The notes beneath the pieces were generated by a model. That model saw only the letters and a program-made list of their open reading frames with translations. It was not told where the DNA came from and searched no databases. Shown in pieces: positions 1,552 through 7,961 of a DNA stretch of 10,390 nucleotides. The translations under genes and the position numbers were made by a program. Positions within the stretch are counted from its first letter, which is position 1; every line of letters begins with the position of its first letter. Location of the stretch: NCBI GenBank assembly GCA_964510165.1, contig CAZEBC010000145.1, forward strand, positions 1 to 10,390. The letters run 5' to 3'. This DNA is from an uncultured bacterium (GTDB taxonomy: Bacteria > Abyssobacteria > SURF-5).

Positions 1552-2931
1552 TCACACTCCCAGAAGCAGCTTGGCGGTCGTGAAATAGATGAGCATGCCG
1601 GTGATGTCCACCGACGTTTGCAGCGCGGGACTTGCGACCACGGCGGGGTCTATCTTCAATTTGGAGGCAAAGAGAGGGAGGAGCGCGCCAATCAGCGTCG
1701 CTGAGATGACTTGCAGACCGAGCGCCAGCGCGACAACTGTGCTCACTCTGCCCAGCGAGAATCCGCCTGTCGTCTCGATGCTCGGCGTAAACAGAACCAC
1801 CCGTACGAGCGAGACGACGACCAGAATGAGGCTTAGCATGATGCTGACCCAAAGCTCCTTCCAGATCACCCGGAATACATCGGCAGCCTTGATTTGCCTG
1901 AGCGCGAGCGCGCGGACGACGACCGTCGCCGCCTGCGAGCCGGTATTCCCGCCCGTTCCGATCAGCATGGGAAGGTAAAACGCCAGCACGAAGACAGTGG
2001 TCAGAGTGTCCTCGAACATCTCCAGGATGGCCCCCGAGATCAGGCCCATCATTGCCAGCGTGACCACCCACACCGCCCGTCTCCGGAAATGGACTACTGC
2101 GGGAATGGACAGATAATCCTCCTCCTGGACAGAGCCTGTCAAGCCCATGAACTTCTCCATGTCCTCGGTCTGTTCTTCCCGCAGAATGTCGAATGCGTCG
2201 TCGTGAGTGACGATGCCCACCAGTGAGCCGCCGCCGTTGACGACCGGGATCGCCAGCAAGTCGTATTTCCCGATTTTGCGCGCCACATCTTCCTGGTCTT
2301 CATCAATCCGCGCCGAGATGACGTCGGGATGCATGATGTCGCCGACCTTTCGCTGGGAGCGCGCGAGCATAAGGTCCTTGAGTGAGATGAAGCCCACAAG
2401 CTTGCGTTTGTCGTCCACCACGTAGGCATAATAAATGGTTTCCTTGTCCGGCGCCTCCAGCCTCAGTTTCCTGATCGCATCCTCCACCGTCAGATCGGGC
2501 GAGAGCGCCGCGTAATCCGAGGTCATCACGGCGCCCGCCGTCCCCTCGGGGTAGGAGGCCAGCTTGCGGATGTCCTCGCGCTCGGCCTGCGCAATTGCCG
2601 GCATCAATATCTGTATCTCTTCCTCCGGCATTTTCTTGATGAGGTCGACCCGTTCGTCGTGCGACATGTTCGAGACAAGCTCGGCCAGTTCGGAGCGGGC
2701 CATTGATGACGCGACGCCGAGCTGAATATCCGTGTCCAGGTAGCTGAATATCTGGGCGCGCGTCCTGGGATCGGCAAAGGAGAGCACCCTCTGGATTTCG
2801 TCGTTTGTGAGGCCGCTCAGAAACTCGGCAATCGAGGCGGGGTGGGTGGATTCGCAGAACTCGCGCAGGTTCTGGACGTCGCCCTCGGCGAGAAATTCCC
2901 GCAACTCGGGAACCAGCAAAATGTTTTTCAT
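1552..2931 (-). CDS. mgtE: Magnesium transporter MgtE
   Basis: MgtE N-domain, tandem CBS domains (YPEGTAGAVMT...YYAYVVD...KYDLLAIPVV), TM domain with GGNTGSQ, IDPAVVASP and TSVD pore motifs. SD GGAGGT just upstream of the ATG. Confidence 0.97.
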   Translation of the reverse strand: MKNILLVPELREFLAEGDVQNLREFCESTHPASIAEFLSGLTNDEIQRVLSFADPRTRAQIFSYLDTDIQLGVASSMARSELAELVSNMSHDERVDLIKKMPEEEIQILMPAIAQAEREDIRKLASYPEGTAGAVMTSDYAALSPDLTVEDAIRKLRLEAPDKETIYYAYVVDDKRKLVGFISLKDLMLARSQRKVGDIMHPDVISARIDEDQEDVARKIGKYDLLAIPVVNGGGSLVGIVTHDDAFDILREEQTEDMEKFMGLTGSVQEEDYLSIPAVVHFRRRAVWVVTLAMMGLISGAILEMFEDTLTTVFVLAFYLPMLIGTGGNTGSQAATVVVRALALRQIKAADVFRVIWKELWVSIMLSLILVVVSLVRVVLFTPSIETTGGFSLGRVSTVVALALGLQVISATLIGALLPLFASKLKIDPAVVASPALQTSVDITGMLIYFTTAKLLLGV

Positions 2932-2937
2932 CAGTCA

Positions 2938-2971
2938 CCTCCGGCAGAACCACCGTCATGGCGGCCGGAGG
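2938..2971 (-). promoter_or_regulatory. Hairpin sequestering the mgtE Shine-Dalgarno
   Basis: On the mRNA, CCUCCGGC (2971-2964) pairs perfectly with GCCGGAGG (2945-2938), which contains the SD. Inner stem CGCC-AUGAC-GGUG. Confidence 0.7.
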
Positions 2972-2981
2972 GCAGGCGGGG

Positions 2982-3110
2982 TTACAGGGCTCTTCCAGCC
3001 CCAGCGCTCCGCAGGTGGGCCACCGTGACGGGAACCGGCGTAAATTGTCGCGCCCCTATGCGAGGCTGCTTCGCTTCTGAATACCGCGTACTACTGCCAG
3101 CTTCTTCCAT
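2982..3110 (-). CDS. Putative mgtE leader peptide (42 aa: MEEAGSSTRYSEAKQPRIGARQFTPVPVTVAHLRSAGAGRAL)
   Basis: ATG 3110 to TAA 2982 lies entirely inside the mgtE 5' UTR and stops 10 nt before the anti-SD arm. The SD is weak and translation is not demonstrated. Confidence 0.4.
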   Translation of the reverse strand: MEEAGSSTRYSEAKQPRIGARQFTPVPVTVAHLRSAGAGRAL

Positions 3111-3161
3111 CGCTTACACCGTTGCCAGTGAACAGACATCTTACGTTACAACATCTTCGTA

Positions 3162-3190
3162 ATTATAATAAATTATCCACAACCCGTCAA
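3162..3190 (-). promoter_or_regulatory. Sigma70-type promoter for mgtE
   Basis: TTGACG (3190-3185), 17 bp spacer, TATAAT (3167-3162) in an AT-rich patch. Implies a leader of about 225 nt. Confidence 0.8.
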
Positions 3191-3233
3191 GGAACAAATT
3201 AACGGCCAACATTGGCCCAATCATCGTACCCGC

Positions 3234-3262
3234 TTGTGCTGGCGACGCACATCGAATATACT
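3234..3262 (+). promoter_or_regulatory. Sigma70-type promoter for the metallohydrolase gene (near-leaderless)
   Basis: TTGTGC (3234-3239), 17 bp spacer, TATACT (3257-3262), ending 8 nt before ATG 3271. No SD present. Confidence 0.5.
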
Positions 3263-3270
3263 GTGAACCA

Positions 3271-5181
3271 ATGAAACACTTCTTTGCAGCGATTCTTCTG
3301 TGCATGATCTGGTGCTCATGCGAACCTCGCAATAACCCTCCCGCCGACCGGCAGGCCGGGACTGACGGCGAATGGTCTCCAACGATTGTTCCGTTCCTGG
3401 AGAACGTTCCTTCTTCCGTTGACGGACAAGGAACGGCACGTCTCAGGCGGCTTGATTCACCGGAGCCTCCGGTCGCCGGCTCAATCGCAAGCTTTGAGAT
3501 CGCTTACACCGTCGGCGAGCGCGGCATCGAACCGCGCGGTTTCGTGATGCTCCAGGCGCCGCCATGGTGGGGGTGGAGCGCTCCTCAGACGCTTTATCCC
3601 GAAGGGCCGGGTTACACTACCGTAACCGCCTCGTCTTCCGCGCCCATTCGCGTTCAAACGCTCCCGCTCAATCGGGTGCTCGTGTTCTGCGAACAACGCC
3701 GGCTTGAACCAAGGGAACAGATCGTCTTCAAATACGCCAATGCGCGTGTGGACACCTTCGCGGAAACCGAGGAACTATTCCAGATATTCGTGGACGGCGA
3801 CGGAGATGGCCATTCGGCGTGCATCTCAAACCCGCCCGCGCTCGCGATACTTCCCGCCAACACGGCCCGCATCAGTTTGAATTCCCCTTCCCAATGCGTC
3901 CCCGGCGAACCGGTCACGCTTCAGGCAGCCGCCCTCGACCCGGTCGGAAATTGGACATCGTTTCCGCCAGGCGTTTATACGCTGACCGCCACGTGCGACG
4001 GCGCGCCAGCGGGCAGTTCAACCCTCGAGGCAAAGGGCGGCGAGAAGATTCTCACTCTCCTCTACAATCCCGGAAAGGAAGGCGTCTACTTTTTCAAAGT
4101 CACGGGGCCGGGCGAACTACAAGGCGCCAGCAATGTGACGCTGTGCCAATCGGGCACACCGACCCTCAACCTCTATTTCGGCGACATTCACGGCCACTCG
4201 CGCATGTCGGACGGTACCGGCGCCCCGGAGGATTACTACCGCTACGCGCGCGATGTCTCGGGCCTCGACCTGGCCGCCTTGACCGATCACGCCGACTACG
4301 GGACCATCCACATAAAGGATGGAGTATGGGAGCGAATCAAGCGAGCGGCAAACGACTCCTACGAACCGGGCAGGTTCGTCACGTTCTTGGGCTTCGAGTG
4401 GACCAACTGGAAATTCGGACATAGGAACGTATACTATCGCGACGGTGACGGCCCGGTCTTTCGCTCCGTCGACCCGGGCAGTTCCACCCCGCAGCGATTG
4501 TGGGGCCTGCTGGCTCCCTATGAGGCCATGACTGTCGCCCATCACGTGGGCGGCGGCCCGATAGCCACCGATTGGACCGTTCCGCCGGGCCCGAAAGAAT
4601 ATCTGGTCGAGATATGCTCCATTCACGGAGCGTCCGAATACTTCGGCGGCGAATCGGCCATCTACAACCCCACGCAAGGCGCCTTCGTGAGAGACGCGCT
4701 CACGCGCGGATACAAGCTCGGCATAATCGCGTCGGGTGACACGCACGACGGGCATCCCGGCCAGCGCAGCGTCGGCGCCGTCGTTAACGGGCTCGTTGGC
4801 GTCTATGCCCCCGCCCTCACGCGCGAGGCCGTATGGGAGGCGTTTAAACGAAGGCAGGTCTATGGAACCAGCGGCCCAAAAATCATCCTGAATTTCCGCG
4901 TGGGCGACTCTCCCATGGGCTCGGAGGTCGCATGGAACCCATCCAAGGGGCCGCTCCCTCTCGCAGTCAGGGCCGTGGGCTGCGATGACATTGCCTCGGT
5001 CGAGATAATCCGCAACGGCCAAACCGCGTTCGCGCAAAAGGGTGAGGGCGTATTCGCACAATTGCTCCTTGAGGACACAAACGTGCTCCCCGGCGTCTCC
5101 TGGTACTATGCCCGCGTCATTCAACAGGACGGCCAGATGGCATGGTCAAGCCCCGTCTGGGTATCCACGACGAAACAGTAG
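3271..5181 (+). CDS. Exported PHP-fold metallohydrolase (CehA/McbA-like, DUF3604-type), probable lipoprotein
   Basis: PHP metal-binding motifs FGDIHGHSRMSDG, ALTDH, GFEWT, GHRNV, SGDTHDGHPG; YGTSG and C-terminal YYARV...AWSSPVWV tail. Signal peptide MKHFFAAILLCMIWCSC with an imperfect lipobox at Cys17. Confidence 0.85.
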   Translation: MKHFFAAILLCMIWCSCEPRNNPPADRQAGTDGEWSPTIVPFLENVPSSVDGQGTARLRRLDSPEPPVAGSIASFEIAYTVGERGIEPRGFVMLQAPPWWGWSAPQTLYPEGPGYTTVTASSSAPIRVQTLPLNRVLVFCEQRRLEPREQIVFKYANARVDTFAETEELFQIFVDGDGDGHSACISNPPALAILPANTARISLNSPSQCVPGEPVTLQAAALDPVGNWTSFPPGVYTLTATCDGAPAGSSTLEAKGGEKILTLLYNPGKEGVYFFKVTGPGELQGASNVTLCQSGTPTLNLYFGDIHGHSRMSDGTGAPEDYYRYARDVSGLDLAALTDHADYGTIHIKDGVWERIKRAANDSYEPGRFVTFLGFEWTNWKFGHRNVYYRDGDGPVFRSVDPGSSTPQRLWGLLAPYEAMTVAHHVGGGPIATDWTVPPGPKEYLVEICSIHGASEYFGGESAIYNPTQGAFVRDALTRGYKLGIIASGDTHDGHPGQRSVGAVVNGLVGVYAPALTREAVWEAFKRRQVYGTSGPKIILNFRVGDSPMGSEVAWNPSKGPLPLAVRAVGCDDIASVEIIRNGQTAFAQKGEGVFAQLLLEDTNVLPGVSWYYARVIQQDGQMAWSSPVWVSTTKQ

Positions 5182-5354: not shown

Positions 5355-6977
5355 TCAGCGAATGTGGCTTGTGGTCTGCTGCCTGGGTTGAGGCCATGCA
5401 TCGGGTGTGTCACAGGCACGCGACTGACTGCGACTCGCGGCGTCAGTGGCAAATATCCATCTCCTCAAGTTATCGCGCTCGATCTTGCTCAGATTGACAA
5501 AGTCGATCCCTGCCTGAAACGCGGGTACGCCCTCAGCATCGCTCTTGGATATCCACACCACTCTCCCCTTCTTCTCGCCCAGTCCCAGTTCGTTGAACAG
5601 CTTCGACCTGAAGCTCACTGTCTCGCCGGTTTTCAGCGCCACATTCGTTGATATCCTCATGCCGCCCTCGCTAATATCGAGGATTTCGCTGTCAATGCGG
5701 ACCGTGATCTTCCCGGACACCGCCTTGCGGAAGAAGCGCCTGCTTTCAATAGATCTCTGCTCCCCCACGAGGGCGCCCTCGAGCTTCGAGACCAGGACCG
5801 ATGGGTCGAACGCCTCGGCGATGATGTCATTTATGCCGCTGCGGAACGCCGCCTCCACGTCCTCGCGAGAGATTCCGTGACTCAGCAGTATCAGCTTCAC
5901 TCCGCCGTTCTTCTTTGACTCCCGTATCTTCTGCGCCAGTCGCAGGATTCCGAACCTGTTTGGCTCGTGACCCAAAAGCACCATTCTCACGTCCTCTCGC
6001 GACAGCCTCTGCAATAGCTCGGCGGCGCTGGTCACACACACGAGGCGATGCTCCACGTTCTTCAACGCCGACTCGACCGCCCCCTGGAGCGATTTGCGCG
6101 AAATATGACAAAGTATGAGAGGAACCGCGCCCGTTTCGGCGGACGCGCCGGCGTGAGCCTGCTCGCTCCACAACTCGAGGTCCCTCTTGAGCGTCGCCGC
6201 GTCCGGGTATCTCTGCTCCGGTGACTTGGCCAGCATCTTTCGGGCAATCATCAGGAGTTTCGGGGGCCACTGTGTCGGCACGAATTTGGGCAACTCCATC
6301 AGGTGGCCCTTTATCACTGCCGCCGGAAAATCATCGCAAAACGGCGGTTTTCCCGTTATCATCTCATACAGGATAATTCCAAGCGAATAGATATCCGTCC
6401 GATTATCTATCGCGCCTTCTCCACATTGCTCCGGCGACATGTACGCTGGAGTCCCCACGAGCGTCATCGTATTCTCGGTTTCGATTGAGATCACCTTGGA
6501 AATGCCAAAATCCGCCACCACAACCCGGCCGCCCCGCTCCACCAGAAGATTGCTTGGCTTCAGGTCCCGGTGAATGACCCCTCGCTCGTGGGCATACTGT
6601 ATGGCGTCGCATACCTGGAGGAGGTAATCGACCGCCTGGCGCGGCTCTATCGCCCCGCGCTCCTCCAATATGCGGGACAGCGGGATGCCGTCAACATACT
6701 CCATCGCAATGAATGCCAGACCATCTTCCTGACCGGTCTTCAATACTCCGACGATGTTTGGATGCTGCAGCATCTTCATCGAGCGGGCTTCCCGGTTGAA
6801 GTTCCTGACGAATCTCATATCCTGATACCGGCTCGGATGCGGAATCTTCAGCGCAACATCGCCGCCGTCTTCATCGCAGGCACGATATACGTTGGCCATC
6901 GCTCCATGGCCAATGAGCTCCACGATGCAGTAATTGCCGACTTTCTCGCCTATCAGATCGGCTTCTTTGAGTGACAC
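5355..6977 (-). CDS. Hanks-type Ser/Thr protein kinase with pseudo-receiver and C-terminal PilZ domain
   Basis: Kinase aa ~16-270 (IGHGAMANVY, VALK, REA, HRDLKPSN, DFG, GTPAYMSPE, DIYSLG). REC-like fold aa ~286-403. PilZ aa ~411-508 (RRFFR, DISEGG, GRVVW, AGIDF). GTG start with SD GGAGG; no TM segment. Confidence 0.9.
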   Translation of the reverse strand: MSLKEADLIGEKVGNYCIVELIGHGAMANVYRACDEDGGDVALKIPHPSRYQDMRFVRNFNREARSMKMLQHPNIVGVLKTGQEDGLAFIAMEYVDGIPLSRILEERGAIEPRQAVDYLLQVCDAIQYAHERGVIHRDLKPSNLLVERGGRVVVADFGISKVISIETENTMTLVGTPAYMSPEQCGEGAIDNRTDIYSLGIILYEMITGKPPFCDDFPAAVIKGHLMELPKFVPTQWPPKLLMIARKMLAKSPEQRYPDAATLKRDLELWSEQAHAGASAETGAVPLILCHISRKSLQGAVESALKNVEHRLVCVTSAAELLQRLSREDVRMVLLGHEPNRFGILRLAQKIRESKKNGGVKLILLSHGISREDVEAAFRSGINDIIAEAFDPSVLVSKLEGALVGEQRSIESRRFFRKAVSGKITVRIDSEILDISEGGMRISTNVALKTGETVSFRSKLFNELGLGEKKGRVVWISKSDAEGVPAFQAGIDFVNLSKIERDNLRRWIFATDAASRSQSRACDTPDAWPQPRQQTTSHIR

Positions 6978-7208: not shown

Positions 7209-7961
7209 CTAACTCACCTTAAGCGCCAGTAGAGTCACGTCGTCAGTGAATCCGCCCTCGCAAATCTCTTCCAGATGGCGGACGAGCGATGTAACCATTG
7301 CGCGGGGGGCGGAATCTCGGTCGGTCACTCTCTGGCAGGCCTCGAGCAGGCCGTTAATATTCAAGCGCTCTTCCGTTTTTCTTCTGATGTCAAGAACGCC
7401 GTCGGTGTAGAACAGGAGCACATCGTCTTCATATAGCTTGGCCTTTGCCTGAATGTACTCTGTATCGCCCAGGATGCCCAGCGGCACGCCAGAATTGCGT
7501 TCGTCAACCGGTTGGAGAAACTGCCATCTTCCGCCCGTCGCACTGAGCCTCAACACCGTCGGATGACCCGCATACGCGTATATCAGGTCGCCCTTTTCAC
7601 CGTTATACGTTGCGGCGACCATCGTCACGAATCTGCCGTCCCGAAGCGTGCGACGCAACGCTTCATTCACGGACATCAGCAGCCTGCTGTTGTCCACCTC
7701 ATTCAGGTGCGCGCGCAACAGATTGCGCATCTCCTCCGCGAGCAACGAGACGACCTCGCCGTGCCCCGAAACGTCCGCGATCACGACCTTGGCGATGGTC
7801 TCGGGGTCGCACTGGCACAGATAATGAATATCGCCCCCCTTGCTCGAGTCGTACGGTATGCTCAACAGGTACCCCTTAAGCTTACCCACCTCCACGTCAT
7901 CGGCGACGCGCTTGTTGCCTCCCCAAATCTCGTTGCATACAAACTTTTTGCCAGGCGCCAT
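7209..7961 (-). CDS. PP2C-family (SpoIIE/RsbU-like) Ser/Thr phosphatase, stand-alone catalytic domain
   Basis: Motifs GGD, IADVSGHG, FVT, AGHP, PLG, YTDGV, DDVT. Short N-terminus with CNEIWGGN and no sensor domain. SD-like GAGGGGG upstream. Confidence 0.92.
   Translation of the reverse strand: MAPGKKFVCNEIWGGNKRVADDVEVGKLKGYLLSIPYDSSKGGDIHYLCQCDPETIAKVVIADVSGHGEVVSLLAEEMRNLLRAHLNEVDNSRLLMSVNEALRRTLRDGRFVTMVAATYNGEKGDLIYAYAGHPTVLRLSATGGRWQFLQPVDERNSGVPLGILGDTEYIQAKAKLYEDDVLLFYTDGVLDIRRKTEERLNINGLLEACQRVTDRDSAPRAMVTSLVRHLEEICEGGFTDDVTLLALKVS

Follow-up and report, generated by a model that had tools for sequence, protein, structure and literature searches.

A conserved leader open reading frame and two competing RNA folds upstream of mgtE suggest a leader-peptide translational attenuator

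Introduction

How is the synthesis of MgtE, one of the main bacterial Mg2+ uptake channels, controlled in a bacterium whose mgtE leader has no M-box? We address this question in a 10,390-nucleotide stretch of DNA from an uncultured bacterium of the Abyssobacteria (SURF-5; contig CAZEBC010000145.1), the whole of which we call the window. Here, a leader of about 225 nt separates mgtE from its promoter; it carries a small upstream open reading frame (uORF) followed by a hairpin that buries the mgtE Shine-Dalgarno (SD) sequence. All coordinates given for the promoter, leader, uORF, hairpins and mgtE refer to the minus strand. To our knowledge, the M-box is the only well-studied RNA control of mgtE, and leader-peptide control of Mg2+ transport has so far been enterobacterial only (mgtL, mgtP and the corA leader).

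An earlier interpretation of the same DNA (the sequence-only reading) had taken this leader to be a translational switch in which a ribosome pausing at or near the uORF stop under low Mg2+ would cover the anti-SD arm and free the mgtE SD. A conserved leader ORF with an SD-sequestering hairpin proves to be the part of that proposal that stands, and a translational switch is still the best reading; the ribosome mechanism put forward with it does not survive the comparisons described below. In its place we suggest, tentatively and with a confidence that falls a little short of even, that the leader is a leader-peptide translational attenuator operating on two mutually exclusive RNA folds.

Results

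A conserved leader ORF ahead of mgtE

The uORF runs from an ATG at 3110 to a TAA at 2984-2982 and has 42 sense codons, encoding the peptide MEEAGSSTRYSEAKQPRIGARQFTPVPVTVAHLRSAGAGRAL. In the window, its start is preceded by a weak SD-like GGUG at 3120-3117. The phylum is represented in our collection by 11 species genomes, 10 of which belong to the window's family; together with two metagenome contigs, these 10 gave a set of 12 family leaders, most of which have a GGAG 7-10 nt before the uORF start. Orthologues of mgtE that are 69-78% identical are present in all family genomes, and the seven full-length relatives inspected first each have a uORF at the equivalent position. A family profile hidden Markov model (HMM) built from eight peptides (the window's and those of the seven relatives) found exactly one strong match per genome in 10/10 family genomes, always just upstream of mgtE, with E-values of 4e-18 to 6e-24 for most and 2e-14 for the worst. 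In the single genome of the sister family, the same HMM gave weak matches only, inside long frames. Two more copies, also ahead of mgtE, were found on metagenome contigs, and a profile search of 1.84 billion representative proteins returned eight proteins at E<=0.001, six of which were added as peptides, the two not retrieved being 775 and 813 aa long. A second uORF-like match in one genome (G002) was set aside as spurious, lying in another frame inside a 542-codon ORF.

Frame 0 is open in 12/12 family leaders, and each of the other frames has stops in 11/12. The family peptides share the consensus M-E-[DE]-[PAS]-G-S-S-S-R ... F-G-P-V-P-A-T-V-A-H-P ... A*, which begins with a conserved acidic N-terminal motif (3110-3090) that reads MEEAGSS in the window and MEDPGSS in most relatives. 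Over the first eight codons, differences at the first, second and third codon positions within the family amount to 0.09/0.08/0.31, a pattern that suggests selection on the amino acids. The corresponding values are mixed across the FGPVPA motif (0.32/0.33/0.39), and in the last uORF codons (0.53/0.62/0.46) it is the third position that is most conserved, which argues for constraint on the RNA at the 3' end of the uORF. Over the whole family uORF, the ratio of nonsynonymous to synonymous change (pN/pS) is 0.81 in frame versus 0.92 and 0.89 in the shifted frames; that of mgtE itself is 0.28.

Conservation therefore does not lie where the sequence-only reading had looked for it. The C-terminal peptide motif that it singled out, HLRSxGxGRA*, is not conserved, the conserved parts being M-E-[DE]-[PAS]-G-S-S and F-G-P-V-P-A-T-V-A-H-P; and the segment CACCUGCGGAGCGCUGGGGCUGGAAGAGCCC, suggested as an alternative to be a conserved metal-sensing motif, is the least conserved part of the uORF, where only a small hairpin is kept. 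The stop codon itself varies, from UAA in the window to UGA in the family and, for the most part, UAG in the wider clade described below, making a selenocysteine or release-factor-specific mechanism unlikely. Read-through of the uORF in the window would run in frame to a UGA (2933-2931) that overlaps the mgtE AUG as UGAUG; a read-through mechanism was rejected, as this in-frame overlap is not conserved in the relatives. A conserved leader ORF with its own start signals stands ahead of mgtE, and on the strength of these sequence comparisons we regard the uORF as real.

The mgtE SD is buried in a conserved hairpin

The SD-sequestering hairpin, P2 (2971-2938; CCCUCCGG...), begins 10 nt beyond the uORF stop. 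Its 8-bp stem (2971-2964 with 2945-2938) is continued by an inner stem (2962-2958 with 2953-2949), and its 3' strand contains the mgtE SD, GGAGG at 2942-2938. In the window P2 has a predicted stability of -23.0 kcal/mol (z = -2.55; 2/200 shuffles as stable). It is kept in all 12 family leaders, and its stability across leaders ranges from -21 to -39 kcal/mol. The small hairpin P1 (3001-2987; GGGCU 3001-2997 with AGCCC 2991-2987) lies over the last uORF codons, at the tip of the alternative helix to which we come below. P1 alone is not beyond chance (z = -0.48, 55/200 shuffles), hairpins of differing sequence occupy its place in most of the 12 family leaders, and the leader as a whole is not unusually stable (z = 0.18). 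That the features of the leader are more than chance follows from their conservation in relatives. Both hairpins, like the 42-codon uORF and the promoter, lie exactly where the sequence-only reading had placed them.

P2 can be followed well outside the family, in a wider clade of mgtE genes from genome and metagenome collections that are 45-60% identical to that of the window. Their depositors' titles label them as Desulfobacterota/Thermodesulfobacteriota, Ignavibacteriales, Fermentibacteria, Spirochaetes, Planctomycetota, Hydrogenedentota, Marinimicrobia and others, and across the clade the ribosome-binding region is nearly identical (GGCCGAAACGGAGGTGAACCATG). Desulfosarcina and Desulfobacula are among the names that depositors gave to MAGs carrying this leader. 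An alignment of 32 RNA sequences from this clade gives a P2 of 17 pairs, GGUUCACCUCC with GGAGGUGAACC plus an inner GC stem, in which 91.2% of cells are paired, versus 34-55% in slid controls, and compensatory changes occur at 9/17 pairs (0/500 shuffles as high). A GAAAC bulge in P2 is conserved across phyla. The mgtE SD is sequestered in a conserved helix, and the comparison of mgtE upstream regions that the sequence-only reading had called for bore out both the uORF, present in 10/10 family genomes, and P2, with its covariation in the wider clade.

The apical loop of the wider-clade P2 (alignment A6, columns 103-120) is C/U-rich and often contains a second word resembling an anti-SD, CCUCCC. 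Several folds of the nascent transcript pair the anti-SD arm with the SD region of the uORF itself, and the SDs of mgtE and the uORF may compete for one anti-SD.

Leader ORFs across several phyla

In the wider clade the uORF has 41-54 codons and the consensus MSDSDGSHSCxxxTxExTQxxxDDPGPRxxxxAAxDVNGRxxxxA*. When 118 unique leaders were compared with the peptide profile, 36 matched in full, 13 partially and 11 in split form, and 58 were missed. Among those missed, 48 nevertheless have an ORF that is 20 codons or longer and terminates 40-85 nt before mgtE, as compared with 8 and 17 in two equal-size control windows, and many of these ORFs have a similar N-terminus (MNDDPGSC, MDDDDGPC, MSESDQPPPG). 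Including the family, such an ORF is found in 116/130 unique leaders, with an SD-like sequence upstream in 89/116. Residue 3 is D/E in 71/116 of these uORFs and residue 5 in 61/116, and residues 2-7 contain a mean of 1.78 D/E versus 0.63 in 540 background ORFs. Whole-genome searches in five wider-clade genomes gave one peptide-profile match each, at the mgtE leader (5/5). The wider-clade uORF has a pN/pS of 0.635 in frame versus 1.0 and 0.93 in the shifted frames, and its conserved D/E columns vary at third positions only.

Peptides of the family and of the wider clade can be aligned colinearly, though not significantly (GSS.R ... L ... fGP with GSHS ... EL ... DDPGP), and the acidic N-terminal motif is the sole peptide feature common to all subfamilies. 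We treat the two sets of leaders as one element because of their shared position, length, type of motif and RNA layout, and not because of their sequence.

These data bear on the idea that the uORF product is itself the effector, a small acidic protein acting in trans, for example as an MgtE partner or a metal-binding modulator, with P2 merely coupling its synthesis to that of the channel. The ORF is strictly linked to mgtE, and its conserved N-terminus of the D-x-D-G-S-H-S-C type offers potential metal ligands. Against this, constraint on the peptide as a whole is weak (pN/pS of 0.64-0.81), the RNA layout is shared by subfamilies whose peptides diverge in their middle and C-terminal parts, the peptide has no Pfam family, and just 24 called proteins among 5.8 billion resemble the wider-clade peptide, all of them unnamed or 'hypothetical'. 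We consider a trans-acting product highly improbable.

An alternative helix that competes with P2

What could compete with so stable a hairpin? When the SD was forced open in wider-clade leaders, the best alternative was a long imperfect helix that joins the 3' half of the uORF (GCGACG, CGCGACCGG, GUGAAC-CGGCG) to the linker and to both the 5' arm and the 3' inner arm of P2. This helix (the ON helix) has 24 pairs, with 77.4% of cells paired versus 28-48% when slid, and compensatory changes at 17/24 pairs (1/500 shuffles) and in 42 cells (0/500). It uses the same nucleotides as P2, making the two mutually exclusive; the uORF spans its entire 5' strand, with the stop in its apical region, and neither helix includes the N-terminal motif.

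This topology recurs as the SD-open fold of 6/8 family leaders inspected, the window included. There, an antisequestor strand at 3043-3018 (uORF codons 23-31) can pair with 2966-2935, that is, with the upper part of P2 and the SD strand, and forcing the SD open costs 5 kcal/mol. The family pairing is GGACC...CCCGCC...GGUGGCC with GGCCGCC...GGCGG...GGUCC, with complementarity kept in 75.5% of cells (12 sequences); in G003 and M125, forcing the SD open merely removed the SD's own pairs. Opening the SD was cheaper with the native uORF than with a dinucleotide-shuffled one in 10/12 family leaders and in 22/26 wider-clade leaders, by a mean of 3.6 kcal/mol in the latter. Minimum free energy folds of transcripts ending at the P2 loop, in which the SD strand is not yet present, paired half or more of the P2 5' arm with the uORF in 9/12 family and 26/30 wider-clade leaders, the partners of the arm being mostly uORF codons 26-39.

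Two other pairings were considered and rejected. A 5' helix joining uORF codons 1-7 to 23-28 in the window is not conserved (64.6% of cells; 150-485/500 shuffles match it on five measures), and the conserved CUGGCAG close to the start of the uORF, considered as a partner of the SD strand, shows no compensation in 12 leaders.

No Rfam family matched the leader. Over the window, Rfam gave no match at gathering score, and at E<=10 only three weak matches of 13-15 bits, for models with gathering scores between 51 and 80. Among 71 related mgtE loci (11 from the family and 60 from the wider clade), Rfam 15 revealed no relevant family, the matches being limited to tRNAs and, close to a single mgtE locus, one opposite-strand fluoride riboswitch (L064 873-938 (-)); in four loci (L036, L043, L049 and L159) the mgtE leader is immediately preceded by tRNA genes. 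The covariance model of the M-box (RF00380, at least 44 bits) likewise matched neither the window nor any of these 71 loci and none of the 11 genomes of the phylum (0/11), with positive controls recovered in B. subtilis and L. lactis, and no M-box was found as a replacement in the 40 mgtE orthologue loci scanned in which the uORF went undetected. The sequence-only reading was thus right to call this a non-M-box leader, and its own novelty check, an Rfam scan, came back without a matching family.

Covariation in both folds could also be read without any role for translation: an RNA-only two-state switch, responding to a ligand, metal ion, protein or temperature, in which the ORF is incidental and conservation of the peptide a by-product of constraints on the RNA. 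Many third positions are indeed conserved (CCU GGC AGU in the family; GCG and AAC in the wider clade), as is the GAAAC bulge of P2, and in L144, L156 and L054 the nucleotide pattern continues across a change of frame, being kept in two frames. These frame splits may be assembly errors or a genuinely broken frame. The incidence of stops in frames other than frame 0 (11/12 family leaders, with frame 0 open in 12/12) argues the other way, as do the conservation of the start codon, of the upstream SD-like sequence (89/116) and of the stop position, the restriction of variation in the D/E columns to third positions, the location of the N-terminal motif outside both helices, in-frame pN/pS values below those of the shifted frames and the lack of an Rfam match. 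An RNA-only switch seems to us quite improbable.

A proposed mechanism and the evidence against it

Two observations, the conserved leader ORF with its own start signals and the sequestration of the SD in a conserved helix, are what a leader-peptide translational attenuator would display; a mutually exclusive helix overlapping the leader ORF shows covariation in the wider clade and, in the family, complementarity without covariation beyond shuffles. We propose that in the OFF state the local GC-rich hairpin P2 (2971-2938) would pair the mgtE SD with its anti-SD arm, and that in the ON state the upper part of P2 would instead be taken up in pairing with the 3' half of the uORF (about 3043-3018, P1 forming the tip), leaving the SD single-stranded. 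Nascent-transcript folds predict that the ON helix starts to form before the SD strand has been transcribed. The uORF takes in exactly the 5' strand of that helix and ends 6-10 nt before P2; a ribosome translating it to the end would therefore unzip the ON helix and spare P2, so that the more stable P2 would form and mgtE would be off. Were the uORF left untranslated in its 3' half, the ON helix would persist and mgtE would be translated. Ribosomes would probably be lost or held at the conserved acidic N-terminal motif (M-x-D/E-x-D/P-G-S) and, by analogy with MgtL, loss there might occur when Mg2+ is low. What we infer from this arrangement is that control runs in this direction, that the ON fold is trapped kinetically, that ribosomes are lost at the N-terminal motif, and that the signal is Mg2+.

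Several results weigh against this attenuator model, the most important of which come from simulating the ribosome as a footprint mask extending from -12 to +14 nt around the first P-site base, placed at each codon including the stop, on equilibrium folds. With the ribosome at almost any codon, or absent, the SD was still paired in 11/12 family leaders and in 6/7 wider-clade leaders tested. The window is the exception, in that a ribosome at codons 1-13 gave an SD accessibility of 0.2-0.5, and one at codons 3-13 raised it to 0.2-0.33. Since P2 wins at equilibrium, the ON state would have to be a kinetic, co-transcriptional product. In addition, the ON helix in the family shows no covariation beyond shuffles (99/500; 12 sequences), and two of the 12 family leaders (G007 and G009) show no antisequestor effect. 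Constraint on the peptide is weak in the window's own family, as its pN/pS of 0.81 indicates; at least 3 of the 11 split profile matches (L144, L156 and L054) have their two parts in different frames; and homology between the family and wider-clade peptides is unsupported by sequence alone (hhalign probability 1.5%). A further point, concerning the acidic motif, is taken up with Mg2+ sensing below.

The same simulations dispose of simpler schemes. Opening of the SD by steric means was rejected, as no ribosome position, stop included, opens it in most leaders. With the stop codon in the A site, the ribosome covers about 9 nt past the stop, to about 2973, and the anti-SD stem starts at 2971; a ribosome pausing at or near the stop, as the sequence-only reading had envisaged, would therefore not cover the anti-SD arm, and under the mask the SD stays paired in all but one leader of each set.

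A related possibility is positive translational coupling, in which a ribosome finishing the uORF melts the lowest pairs of P2 and re-initiates or admits another ribosome, P2 itself bringing the uORF stop and the mgtE AUG spatially close; pausing at the stop under low Mg2+ would be a special case of it. The position of the stop is tightly conserved just 5' of P2, at a distance of 6 nt in 19/30 wider-clade leaders and 1-13 nt in the family; P2 is so stable (-21 to -39 kcal/mol) that independent initiation should be poor; and a stop codon in the A site slightly raises the accessibility of the spacer and AUG in 3/7 wider-clade leaders. Yet the footprint of a terminating ribosome overlaps P2 by no more than 3 nt in wider-clade leaders and in the window does not touch the core stem at all, the footprint simulations left the SD paired, and coupling assigns no role to the covariation-supported alternative helix. 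Moreover, if the acidic motif cuts completion of the uORF at low Mg2+, coupling would make MgtE fall when Mg2+ is scarce, the wrong direction for an importer. Taking these points together, we think coupling somewhat unlikely.

Mg2+ as the candidate signal

On the attenuator model, what might the leader sense? As described in the bioRxiv preprint 10.1101/2021.02.02.429294, the N-terminal EPDP motif of MgtL aborts translation more often at low Mg2+. By analogy with this, the N-terminal motif of the uORF is a candidate site of Mg2+-dependent ribosome loss, and ribosome loss at low Mg2+ would turn mgtE on, the direction expected of homeostasis; sensing of Mg2+ by the mgtE leader is suggested on these grounds. 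As an MgtL-type criterion we used four D/E/P among the six residues after Met, a count given by Chadani et al. for internal DE/P-rich segments (bioRxiv 10.1101/2021.02.02.429294). The window's MEEAGSS has 2/6 and the typical family MEDPGSS 3/6, so that the window falls below this count, which only 5/116 uORFs reach; this is the further point against the model alluded to above. A more specific version, in which the acidic D-x-D-G-type N-terminus would be a direct in-ribosome sensor of Mg2+, such that ribosomes drop off within the first codons at low Mg2+, the co-transcriptional ON helix survives and MgtE is translated, strikes us as unlikely on present evidence.

Source genome and surroundings of the locus

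The mgtE coding sequence (2931-1552, ATG at 2931) encodes a protein of 459 aa with the Pfam domains MgtE_N, CBS and MgtE. It is the genome's sole match to the mgtE protein query, and the leader is likewise single-copy in the source genome. In this 97%-complete genome (G000), CorA (PF01544) gave no match and MgtA (TIGR01524) none above cut-off; with the queries used, the MgtE under the control of this leader thus appears to be the sole Mg2+ importer seen there.

Transcription is predicted to start near 3155, from a sigma-70-type promoter at 3190-3162 (TTGACG 3190-3185, a 17-nt spacer and TATAAT 3167-3162). The promoter agrees with the consensus at 11/12 positions and is the sole match in 2700-3500, versus 0.4 expected from shuffles. 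Each of the 12 family leaders has such a promoter, CTTGAC-N17/18-TATAAT, located 51-288 nt before the uORF, the distance in the window being 51 nt. In four relatives, L007 (G004), L003 (G007), L120 (G009) and L002 (G005), the gap between promoter and uORF is 110-290 nt and contains terminator-like hairpins followed by U runs, e.g. CCGCCG...CGGCGG UAUUUUGUU, which could represent a second, upstream attenuator or a small RNA. The leader in the window is without such a stretch.

On the other side of the promoter, a divergent DUF3604 gene (3271-5181 (+)) has a 339-nt intergenic region in common with the mgtE promoter and leader. Elsewhere in the window, the gene for a Ser/Thr protein kinase (5355-6977 (-)), with a weak receiver-like region and a C-terminal PilZ domain, neighbours that for a SpoIIE-type phosphatase (7209-7961 (-)).

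Discussion

Rfam, Pfam and a full-text literature search did not turn up any account of such an mgtE leader peptide. Read as proposed here, the element is a leader-peptide translational attenuator with a new target gene, a geometry of its own and a distribution over several phyla, and its relation to known systems can be set out in those terms.

MgtL is a 17-aa peptide that controls a P-type ATPase via Rho-dependent transcription termination. Like mgtL-mgtA in Salmonella and E. coli, the element described here places a short leader ORF with an acidic/proline N-terminal motif before a Mg2+ importer, and the progress of the ribosome through that ORF is proposed to select between RNA folds. Unlike mgtL-mgtA, the ORF has 42-48 codons, the target is the channel MgtE and the output is sequestration of the SD. 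In the translational attenuation of ermC and cat, a drug-stalled ribosome on segment 1 turns the gene on. The likeness to these systems lies in an SD buried in a hairpin, a competing helix with leader-ORF sequence and an outcome decided by the position of the ribosome; the difference is that here the whole 5' strand of the ON helix is inside the uORF and the stop is just before the hairpin. Given that geometry, completed translation is predicted to switch mgtE off and ribosome loss to switch it on, in contrast to ermC and cat.

Other leaders of Mg2+ transporter genes are further removed. The corA leader, which we compare by description only, acts at the level of transcription and serves a different transporter family. 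The account of this 5' region of a Mg2+ channel gene in E. coli and Salmonella in PMC11552253 gives it a predicted fold like that of the mgtA leader. The M-box (ykoK, RF00380) is an aptamer that binds Mg2+ directly and needs no uORF, unlike the mgtE leader described here; according to the account in PMC12810186, it regulates mgtE-type transporters of Bacillus and mycobacteria. In mycobacteria, uORFs associated with the M-box are described in the same source (PMC12810186), and the same kind of M-box-associated uORF is described for M. abscessus (PMC4974804). Another element in this position is the mgtE motif of Thioalkalivibrio (SRC-65-1), an orphan riboswitch candidate upstream of mgtE, in which the SD and AUG lie at the bottom of a long imperfect stem and which is reported from a single gammaproteobacterial genus only, with 32 representatives (Narunsky et al. 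2024, PMC11109978). In the description given there it is a riboswitch candidate and not a uORF, and it is on this description only that we set it apart from the present leader.

The element marks a conserved small ORF that gene callers nearly always miss, and as a two-state RNA with covariation support for both states it is directly testable. If its acidic N-terminus does act as an in-ribosome sensor of Mg2+, it would represent a second, independently evolved and far more widespread instance of an MgtL-like principle, acting on translation initiation of a channel gene and not on Rho-dependent termination. More broadly, the element would extend leader-peptide control to MgtE, in many uncultured, anaerobic lineages without an M-box in any locus scanned.

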